A stretch of DNA of 13,984 nucleotides from contig JAGPEW010000005.1 in the NCBI GenBank assembly GCA_018056825.1, positions 1 to 13,984 on the forward strand. The letters run 5' to 3'. Positions 5,154 to 6,245 of the stretch are shown here, piece by piece (position 1 is the stretch's first letter; the number at the start of each line of letters is the position of its first letter). This DNA is from Candidatus Sordicultor aquaticus. Its GTDB lineage: Bacteria; Atribacterota; Atribacteria; Atribacterales; Caldatribacteriaceae. A program made the position numbers and the translations under genes. Under the pieces are notes generated by a model. It saw nothing but the letters and a program-made list of their open reading frames with translations, made no database searches and had not been told where the DNA came from.

Positions 5154-6245
5154 TTAGCATACTTTATTCATTTTTCTCTTTACTCTCGGGCTTACCCACC
5201 CACAGTAAATACATCCTCTCTCCAAAAGTTCTTTAACCGGGCTCTCTTTTCCACAATGAGGGCAGGTCTCCCTTTCCCCTTCTTCCCCTTCCTTACTTTT
5301 AGATAAGAGCTGCTCCCATTCCTGCATTGCCTTTTTATTCCCTGAAAAATACTCTTCTCTCCCTTCGTGTCTTACCACCAGTTCTTCTTCTACCTTTAAT
5401 ATCCCGCCACCTTCTTTGGCCTTCTCTATTCTTACCCCTTTTATTTCTTTTAGCTCTACCTCTAAGGCAATACTTCCATCAAAGTCATACCACCAGAGGA
5501 GTCTTTGGTTAGTAAGATAAAGATAGCCAGCTTTCCAGGTCTTACTCTTGGTCCCACCAGGGGCAGGAAGCTCCATTAAGTACCACATCTTCTCCTTGCG
5601 CACTAATTCCTCATTTTCCACTAAGAATTTTGAGGCATTATCGTCTAATACTGGTGCCGGTATCTCTTCAAATGGAAGTCCCTTCTCTTTCATTTTCTCC
5701 TCTATAGCCTTTTTTACCGTAGAAGCATCGGTAGGGTGAAGTTTTTCTATTCCCCCACTTTTAAGGAAGAGATAAAGATAGTCTGTCTTTTTTTTGGCGA
5801 TATTCTCCTTCCTTTCCATAGCATAGCCTTTAATATCTTCATATCTTGTCTCAAAAAGTATCTCGGAAGGCTCTTTTCTATACAAGAAGACCCTTTGATT
5901 AGTAACATAAATATGTCCTGGTCTCCAATTATGCCATATCCCCTTAGAATGCCACTCTGAACCAAACATCTTGATGATAACTTCTTCACCTTCTCGCAAT
6001 AAATTATCCTTCCCCTTTCGCCTTATTTCATCTCGGGCCGCCATCCTTTGTGCTTCATCCCAATCTTTCCACATTCCATAATCTAACATAGTCTGCATCC
6101 CAGCCAAAGCAGTCTTTAATTTAATCCCCAACAGAGGAATCCCCGCTATATGAATAATCAGATCGGTATCCAACATTATACCTTTATCTAGAATCCGGTC
6201 TAAGAGGTCTACTAAGGTAGTTTCTGTATTACGAGTCGGTTCCAT
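5154..6245 (-). CDS. GvpA/J/M-like domain fused to two bacterial-PH/GRAM-like domains and a C-terminal zinc ribbon.
   Basis: The N-terminus reads TLVDLLDRILDKGIMLDTDLIIHIAGIPLLGIKLKTALAGMQTMLDYG, a GvpA-family core. Two repeats follow, GHIYVTNQRVFLYRKE... and GYLYLTNQRLLWWYDFDG..., each with the G.LY.TNQRL bPH/GRAM hallmark. The C-terminus is CPHCGKES...GCIYCGW. Confidence 0.75.
   Translation of the reverse strand: MEPTRNTETTLVDLLDRILDKGIMLDTDLIIHIAGIPLLGIKLKTALAGMQTMLDYGMWKDWDEAQRMAARDEIRRKGKDNLLREGEEVIIKMFGSEWHSKGIWHNWRPGHIYVTNQRVFLYRKEPSEILFETRYEDIKGYAMERKENIAKKKTDYLYLFLKSGGIEKLHPTDASTVKKAIEEKMKEKGLPFEEIPAPVLDDNASKFLVENEELVRKEKMWYLMELPAPGGTKSKTWKAGYLYLTNQRLLWWYDFDGSIALEVELKEIKGVRIEKAKEGGGILKVEEELVVRHEGREEYFSGNKKAMQEWEQLLSKSKEGEEGERETCPHCGKESPVKELLERGCIYCGWVSPRVKRKMNKVC

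Follow-up and report, generated by a model that had tools for sequence, protein, structure and literature searches.

GvpJ, GvpM and GvpS are essential paralogs of GvpA that are thought to seed the bicone (PMC9994262, PMC11445434) and have been proposed as nucleation factors (PMC9994262). GvpM-type proteins occur in small amounts and early in assembly (PMC9501494, PMC9994262). GvpM itself has 84 residues with a short tail, the last 20 residues being dispensable; GvpH prevents its aggregation, and GvpL is its main partner (PMC9501494). Its equivalents are GvpS of Bacillus megaterium and GvpA2 of Serratia sp. ATCC 39006. B. megaterium accepts fusions at both ends of GvpS, which stays, together with GvpJ, in urea-washed bicones; there the contact between GvpA and GvpL is mediated by GvpS, GvpK and GvpJ (PMC11445434). 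Here we describe a GvpM-type gene, referred to as the target, in a gas-vesicle (gvp) cluster of Candidatus Sordicultor aquaticus (Atribacterota), in which the shell core is followed by two PH-like domains and a zinc ribbon. The window, that is the whole stretch of DNA analysed, comprises the 13,984 nucleotides of contig JAGPEW010000005.1.

Compared with GvpM of Halobacterium salinarum, residues 1-67 of the target align over the whole GvpM model, and its homologues mostly lie, as GvpM does, right after gvpL; the target itself shares a gvp operon with gvpF, G, J, K, L, N and O. Unlike GvpM, the target carries about 300 additional residues, namely a helix, the two PH-like domains and the zinc ribbon, and in the window its gene follows gvpJ.

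Domain architecture of the GvpM-type protein

The target gene is an uninterrupted frame that encodes 363 residues from an ATG start at 6245. This start lies 4 nt past the stop codon of the upstream gvpJ-like gene, and a GGAGG Shine-Dalgarno sequence (6262-6258) is found 12 nt ahead of it. The parts of the gene and the evidence on which each was delimited are as follows.

5154..6245, minus strand: target, GvpM-type protein with tandem PH domains and zinc ribbon (open reading frame; stop codon 5154-5156)
6258..6262, minus strand: ribosome-binding site GGAGG, within the 3' end of the upstream gvpJ-type gene (sequence)
6075..6245, minus strand: GvpA/J/M shell core (helix 1, beta-hairpin, helix 2), residues 1-57 (Pfam, NCBIfam and PDB matches)
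5994..6074, minus strand: conserved helix (W62, D63, R67) and linker, residues 58-84 (model helix 58-77; conservation)
5676..5993, minus strand: PH-like domain 1 (PH1), residues 85-190, seven strands and a C-terminal helix
5613..5675, minus strand: acidic linker between the PH domains, residues 191-211 (model and net charge)
5280..5612, minus strand: PH-like domain 2 (PH2), residues 212-322, homologous to PH1 (Vps36 GLUE 28.6 bits; GRAM 1e-4; hhalign)
5157..5279, minus strand: zinc ribbon and basic tail, residues 323-363 (cysteine codons 5262-5264, 5253-5255, 5211-5213 and 5202-5204)

The initial annotation had read this gene as a Gvp-like core joined to two PH/GRAM-like domains and a zinc ribbon, and each of these parts was confirmed; we are highly confident of their identity. 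It had also named a sequencing error near position 6075 as a possible source of a false fusion. Position 6075 is where the Gvp core gives way to the next helix, and the frame is continuous. A protein search returned more than 100 full-length, collinear relatives from independent assemblies, with 43-63% identity, 359-375 residues and the same domain order. A genome scan with one genome per species, in which only the PH-PH-Zn part served as query, had matches in 104 species, from which 80 loci were returned; nearly all of them, cultured isolates included, show a single in-frame tblastn segment that reaches from the Gvp core across PH1 and PH2, and in the majority the segment takes in the zinc ribbon as well (query 1 to about 358). 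Shorter segments lack only the zinc-ribbon end or are clipped by the end of the contig. With the fusion kept in frame in about 80 species, the explanation that a frameshift or an assembly error joined a small gvp gene to a separate PH-domain gene was rejected, and we give it practically no weight.

The core could be assigned within the A-J-M family. Residues 10-48 match Pfam PF00741 Gas_vesicle (E 2e-12, 47.5 bits, cutoff 25), as do all of the 100 relatives, and the profile of the target family matches the solved GvpA shells 8gbs (3e-11) and 7r1c (2e-9). Among the NCBIfam models the core scored 91.2 bits with GvpM, 38.5 with GvpJ and 34.4 with GvpA, the GvpM alignment to residues 1-67 covering 67 of 67 model positions. 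The score of 91.2 bits is below the curated cutoff (109) of the model concerned, NF046091 halo_gas_GvpM, which is a haloarchaea-specific 'exception' model; the upstream 126-residue protein likewise scored higher with GvpJ (99 bits) than with GvpM (60) and lies under the curated cutoff of the haloarchaeal model. Because both proteins fall under the cutoffs of haloarchaea-specific models, they are labelled here GvpM-type and GvpJ-type. Like the GvpJ-type protein, the target has a GvpA-like core, a C-terminal helix and a zinc ribbon, whereas the GvpJ-type protein of the window is devoid of PH domains.

Gene order gave a second indication. The usual order in the related loci is gvpJ(Zn), then a two-ribbon gene and/or the gene of a 165-residue protein, then gvpK, gvpL and the target homologue, which matches the haloarchaeal J-K-L-M order. 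gvpL is immediately upstream of the target homologue in 54 of the 80 loci, whereas in the window and six other loci (mostly archaeal) the gene is preceded by gvpJ instead; in the window and the archaeal loci it has moved to this place. By its best NCBIfam score and the position after gvpL, the core is best assigned to the GvpM type, which narrows the GvpA/J/M-like core of the initial annotation. In a large lineage of gvp clusters the target is the standard form of GvpM and not a rare variant.

The two repeats of the form G.LY.TNQRL on which the PH/GRAM reading had been built are present as PGHIYVTNQRVF (residues 109-120; repeat GHIYVTNQRVF) and AGYLYLTNQRLL (residues 239-250; repeat GYLYLTNQRLL), one per PH domain, and the two domains are homologous to each other (hhalign probability 98.7%, E 2.9e-16). 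AlphaFold2 from the single sequence gave an unusable model with a predicted local distance difference test score (pLDDT) of 38; the prediction from an alignment of 100 sequences reached a pLDDT of 83.7. It shows two seven-stranded sandwiches of PH type, each capped by a C-terminal helix, with pLDDT above 90 over most of both blocks, so that the PH-like reading of the repeats stands. PH2 is above the Pfam threshold for Vps36_ESCRT-II, the GLUE domain (28.6 bits, cutoff 24.1), while the scores of GRAM (1e-4), TFIIH-PH and BBS5 on the target are just under threshold and PH1 alone has only a sub-threshold match to bPH_3 (18.0 bits, cutoff 23). Among the 100 relatives, PH-clan matches were found to GLUE in 88, to GRAM in 85, to bPH_3 in 36 and to bPH_2 in 1, the two latter counts being taken at E <= 0.01; almost all recurrent non-Gvp Pfam matches in this set are to PH-like families. 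Neither of the bacterial PH families named in the initial annotation, bPH_2 (PF03703) and bPH_3 (PF14470), is matched by the target above threshold.

Closest to the PH domains in sequence and fold are GRAM, Vps36 GLUE, BBS5, TAPP1 and myotubularin, and the group nearest to them is GRAM/GLUE/BBS5. The Vps36 GLUE, GRAM and TFIIH p62 PH domains are eukaryotic lipid-, ubiquitin- or peptide-binding modules; the target domains differ in being neutral to acidic. BBS5, the tandem PH-GRAM protein of the BBSome, is the best non-Gvp PDB sequence match of the target (E 2e-4), with an alignment that covers both PH domains and in which the motif G-x-L-x-x-T-N-x-R-x-x-W is seen twice, and it is also the top Foldseek match of the model (1.7e-8). 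Unlike the target, BBS5 is a eukaryotic ciliary trafficking protein that has neither Gvp core nor zinc ribbon, and with 20 bits against a cutoff of 23.8 for Pfam PF07289 BBL5 the target is not a member of the BBS5 family. The likeness is best read as one of fold and tandem arrangement, not as evidence of a common function. Within PH1, the motif W-R-x-G-x-x-Y-x-T-x-x-R and a nearly invariant beta1-beta2 loop, S-K-G-I-Y, were found; this loop is a candidate binding site.

The CPHCG...CIYCGW ribbon proposed for the C-terminus is present as two CxxC knuckles, in which C328 and C331 are invariant and C345 and C348 at least 90% conserved among the 100 relatives. The model places short strands at 325-327 and 334-336. 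DUF7560 was the only curated family matched (E 0.027, below threshold), and metal binding by the ribbon is putative. The ribbon is common to the target and two of its neighbours, which lie, with the other genes of this part of the cluster, as follows.

6250..6630, minus strand: GvpJ-type core with C-terminal zinc ribbon, 126 residues (NCBIfam GvpJ E 1.4e-28)
4674..5075, minus strand: 133-residue protein with two zinc ribbons, downstream of the target
4180..4677, minus strand: 165-residue protein with helix-turn-helix-like region and Hsp20-like end, GvpH-like (NCBIfam Hsp20 E 1.7e-4)
3867..4193, minus strand: gvpK (Pfam GvpK E 4.8e-18)
2579..3835, minus strand: gvpL, 418 residues (Pfam GvpL_GvpF E 1.5e-65)

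A profile hidden Markov model of the zinc-ribbon region was built from the target-family alignment, target included, so that the target score (E 1e-19) is as expected by construction. The same profile matched the GvpJ-type neighbour (E 1e-13) and both halves of the 133-residue protein (1.6e-8 and 1.2e-4), neither of which had been used in building it; matches of the 133-residue protein to Pfam DZR and zinc-ribbon families were below threshold. A ribbon of the pattern CPxCG-x7-L-x3-GC-x2-CG(W/Y) thus occurs four times in three consecutive genes, those of the GvpJ-type protein, the GvpM-type target and the two-ribbon protein. Genes combining Gvp core and ribbon without PH domains were found in 63 of 84 sequences, and zinc ribbons turn up repeatedly in this lineage of clusters.

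Spread of the fusion and of its PH type in gvp clusters

The search of other genomes that had been suggested for this architecture returned the same in-frame fusion in at least 80 species, distributed over more than a dozen bacterial phyla and methanogen-related archaea. The hosts include Methanophagales, Methanotrichaceae, Chloroflexota, Bacillota, Actinomycetota, Desulfobacterota, Bacteroidota, Planctomycetota, Nitrospirota, Verrucomicrobiota, Atribacterota, Aerophobetes and Aminicenantes, and among the cultured Bacillota Desulfosporosinus fructosivorans, Lachnotalea glycerini, Anaerobacterium chartisolvens, Marinisporobacter balticus and Clostridium sp. ZS2-4. Almost without exception the 80 loci are gvp clusters (gvpL in 72, gvpK in 65), and those with no other gvp gene are few and lie on short contigs. 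The target-type GvpM belongs to a lineage of gvp clusters that is found mostly in anaerobes. Clusters of this type make real vesicles, since Desulfosporosinus cupriresistens forms them and an identical cluster has been reported in D. fructosivorans (PMC12739157), whose genome holds a full-length target homologue with 43% identity (locus L028). In Methanothrix thermoacetophila a gene annotated gvpM is co-regulated with the other gvp genes (PMC10470525).

Against 1.84 billion representative proteins the PH-PH-Zn query gave 153 matches only. About 83 of the 150 matches listed have a Gvp core, in the combinations Gvp-PH, Gvp-PH-Zn, Gvp-PH-PH and Gvp-PH-PH-Zn, and the remaining ones listed are mostly short, fragment-like sequences. 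The family also has many Gvp-PH proteins of about 200 residues without ribbon, for example a 230-residue Methanothrix protein annotated GvpJ.

Within the gvp clusters the same PH type is attached to other proteins as well. In 32 of 83 loci one or two such domains are fused N-terminally to homologues of the 165-residue Hsp20-like protein; in an Atribacteria single-cell genome (L041, 2420-3721) this gives a protein of 433 residues made up of PH-PH and the 165-residue homologue. In 35 loci a stand-alone PH gene product of about 130 residues is found, usually encoded between gvpL and the target homologue. Among single cases, P0139 is, by Pfam, a GvpK-GvpM-PH-PH fusion, P0150 and P0191 have the same layout with an unscanned extension of about 100 residues ahead of the Gvp core, and in P0202 the N-terminal half of GvpF/L is followed by a PH domain. 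The PH-fused and the unfused form of the 165-residue protein are mutually exclusive, never occurring together in the related loci. Stand-alone PH proteins are commoner in loci where the 165-residue protein is without PH (20 of 33, as opposed to 7 of 32 where it carries one; Fisher p 0.0024, uncorrected for phylogeny). Judged by this distribution, the PH type is tied to gas-vesicle assembly proteins.

The fusions of the 165-residue homologues in 32 loci mirror the known relationship between GvpH and GvpM (PMC9501494). The 165-residue protein of the window is likened to haloarchaeal GvpH by its Hsp20-like end only; within the window, the sole match to the Pfam GvpH model was a weak one (E 0.09) on a different Hsp20 gene.

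The view that the architecture was undescribed held up within the library searched, which yielded no paper that connects gas vesicles with PH, pleckstrin, GRAM or GLUE domains. The databases give proteins of the target type generic names such as 'hypothetical', 'GvpJ' or 'gas vesicle protein' (the last also for the entry 100% identical to the target), and the ribbon has led to the misnomer 'ribosomal protein L37E'. Precomputed Pfam matches for both domain types are already in the databases; the raw data appear to be public but uninterpreted.

A putative protein-binding platform and its alternatives

The reading to which we incline, and which we regard as somewhat probable, is that the PH-PH-Zn module serves as the protein-binding platform of a nucleation complex on a GvpM-type shell paralog. 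The N-terminal core would join the early nucleus of the vesicle wall, as has been proposed for GvpM, GvpS and GvpJ. The C-terminal module of about 35 kDa would then lie outside the wall and face the cytoplasm, because in cryo-electron microscopy structures the GvpA C-terminus is on the cytoplasmic face (PMC9994262). There the PH domains may hold or recruit assembly proteins, the prime candidates being the GvpH-like Hsp20 protein, GvpL and GvpK, and the zinc ribbon may pair the target with GvpJ and the two-ribbon protein, which is plausible because both carry the same ribbon. Until its incorporation, the aggregation-prone core might also be kept soluble by the module. The comparative evidence favours such protein-protein contacts inside the assembly machinery, since the PH type is fused to the GvpH-like Hsp20 protein, to GvpK and to GvpF/L.

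Several observations speak against this assignment. The eukaryotic PH, GRAM and GLUE relatives often bind lipids. Domain fusions indicate a functional link and not which surfaces touch. Incorporation of the core into the wall would follow from homology only, and the monomer model has low confidence over the hairpin (22-42). The statistic on stand-alone PH proteins ignores shared ancestry among the loci. Most related clusters have three PH domains and the window two: its 165-residue protein is without PH and a stand-alone PH gene is absent, so the idea of a PH-to-PH pairing cannot apply in the window.

The eukaryotic relatives suggest a membrane tether, which the initial annotation had put forward beside tethers to cargo and to zinc-ribbon partners: through lipids bound by the PH domains, nascent or mature vesicles would be held at the cytoplasmic membrane or at internal ones. 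Many of the closest relatives are indeed lipid binders, and the nearly invariant loop of PH1 occupies the classical lipid-binding position. This loop, however, contains just one basic residue, and the mean net charge over the 100 relatives, a weak proxy for a basic pocket of the phosphoinositide type, is -0.3 for PH1 and -2.8 for PH2, unlike that of typical binders of anionic lipids. The domain is moreover conserved between ether-lipid archaea and many phyla of bacteria, lipid is absent from gas vesicles themselves, and the fusions to a chaperone-like protein, GvpK and GvpF/L fit protein recognition better; we consider a membrane tether unlikely. Another alternative is that PH-PH-Zn binds the outer face of the GvpA wall, of its own or of a neighbouring vesicle, and stiffens it like GvpC, or bundles vesicles or attaches them to spores like GvpU. 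In line with this, no GvpC-like repeat protein was recognised in the window, stand-alone PH proteins occur in 35 loci, vesicles surround the spores in several Bacillota (PMC12739157), and clustering factors of the GvpU type bind the wall via folded domains; in the GvpU preprint the factor has two structured domains separated by a disordered stretch, and no PH fold is named (bioRxiv 10.1101/2023.06.01.543273). The low abundance and early action of GvpM-type proteins (PMC9501494, PMC9994262) make a stoichiometric coat unlikely, the window is incomplete upstream, so that gvpC may lie outside it, and NCBIfam matched only Gvp-core models on the target and none on its PH part (E <= 0.01), the presence of a GvpU or GvpC model in that collection not having been checked. 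An organiser of the vesicle surface is in our estimation improbable.

The need of GvpM for GvpH to remain soluble (PMC9501494) and the tolerance of GvpS for large fusions (PMC11445434) would also be compatible with a simpler role, in which the C-terminal module shields the hydrophobic core of its own polypeptide and has no external partner. Such a solubility tag leaves unexplained the strongly conserved surface loop, the ribbon shared with two neighbouring genes, and the spread of the PH type to four other assembly proteins and stand-alone genes, and we hold it to be very unlikely. The protein-binding platform can conversely be extended to a wider proposal, which we put forward only tentatively and with some doubt. 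The PH-like domain may represent an unrecognised family of gas-vesicle assembly adaptors that recognises either GvpA-family proteins or the GvpL/GvpK nucleation platform and is attached in turn to the GvpM seed, an Hsp20-type chaperone, GvpK or GvpF/L, or is free-standing; when carried by GvpM, the domain would build an external crown by which the tip of the vesicle, or its nucleation site, is marked. If true, it would provide a natural 35-kDa label for finding the long-sought nucleus of gas-vesicle assembly.

A GvpM-type protein with PH domains may help to clarify the beginnings of gas-vesicle formation. The target is a natural GvpM with a large, well-folded external module and a ribbon in common with GvpJ; the module could serve as a built-in density marker for placing GvpM in bicones by cryo-electron tomography, and PH-PH and the zinc ribbon as soluble handles for pull-downs that map the nucleation complex. 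The map of domain fusions connects GvpM, the GvpH-like chaperone, GvpK and GvpF/L. Anaerobes (methanogen relatives, Chloroflexota, Bacillota, Desulfobacterota, Atribacterota and others) have gvp clusters that differ consistently from the model clusters used for acoustic reporter genes, a difference that matters for engineering.

Layout of the remaining cluster

The window consists of one gvp cluster, the recognisable genes of which are all on the minus strand; gvpN, F, G, J, K, L and O were identified. In addition to the genes listed above, it contains, in the direction of reading, the following.

13582-13950, minus strand: 122-residue protein, no family assignment, weak winged-helix matches
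13058-13453, minus strand: 131-residue protein, no family assignment
12125-13042, minus strand: gvpN
11791-12102, minus strand: 103-residue protein, no family assignment
11024-11794, minus strand: gvpF/L
10400-10939, minus strand: Hsp20
9814-10386, minus strand: 190-residue protein, no family assignment
7649-9796, minus strand: CDC48/VCP-type double AAA ATPase with CDC48 N-domains
6885-7628, minus strand: gvpF/L
6634-6870, minus strand: gvpG
1969-2553, minus strand: Hsp20
1659-1916, minus strand: gvpO
1344-1583, minus strand: 79-residue double zinc ribbon, of a different type from that of the target
361-837, minus strand: SLOG cluster4 (LOG-like) gene, downstream of the gvp cluster (E 5e-47)

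No gvpA was found in the window, and the contig stops 34 nt upstream of the first gene. As the window is the entire contig, gvpA is placed beyond it and probably lies past the contig end. Rfam and tRNA scans of the window gave no matches. Promoter-like and terminator-like sites occur in it at chance level, and for this reason no operon boundaries are claimed. One promoter-like site with 11 of 12 matches is located at 948-921, near the SLOG gene, which is probably unrelated to the gvp cluster.

The cluster looks mosaic. Its gvpJ-to-gvpL part (2579-6630) has the gene order of an archaeal Methanophagales locus (L004), to which GvpJ is 92%, GvpK 84% and the target 61% identical; the corresponding values for an Atribacterota locus (L081) are 82%, 74% and 41%. 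GvpL of the window is similar to both (53% for L004 and 55% for L081), and the gvpN-to-gvpG part (6634-13950) is 69-83% identical to L081. This pattern suggests an exchange of half a cluster between the domains, or a recombinant cluster. GvpL (2579-3835) moreover begins with a Glu-, Lys- and Ser-rich extension of about 150 residues that precedes its GvpL_GvpF domain (152-403).

The CDC48-type ATPase is encoded inside the gvp operon in addition to gvpN, and a homologue is present in 42 of the 80 related loci, mostly bacterial. A strict association between zinc ribbons and the CDC48-like ATPase was considered and is not supported, as the archaeal loci have ribbons and no CDC48 gene within 10 kb. 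Among the genes without family assignment, that of the 190-residue protein (9814-10386) recurs in 18 related loci. The 122-residue protein upstream of gvpN might, by its weak winged-helix matches, be a regulator; together with the 131-residue protein it recurs in a few bacterial loci, and the gene order is the same in three of them (L011, L016 and L081).

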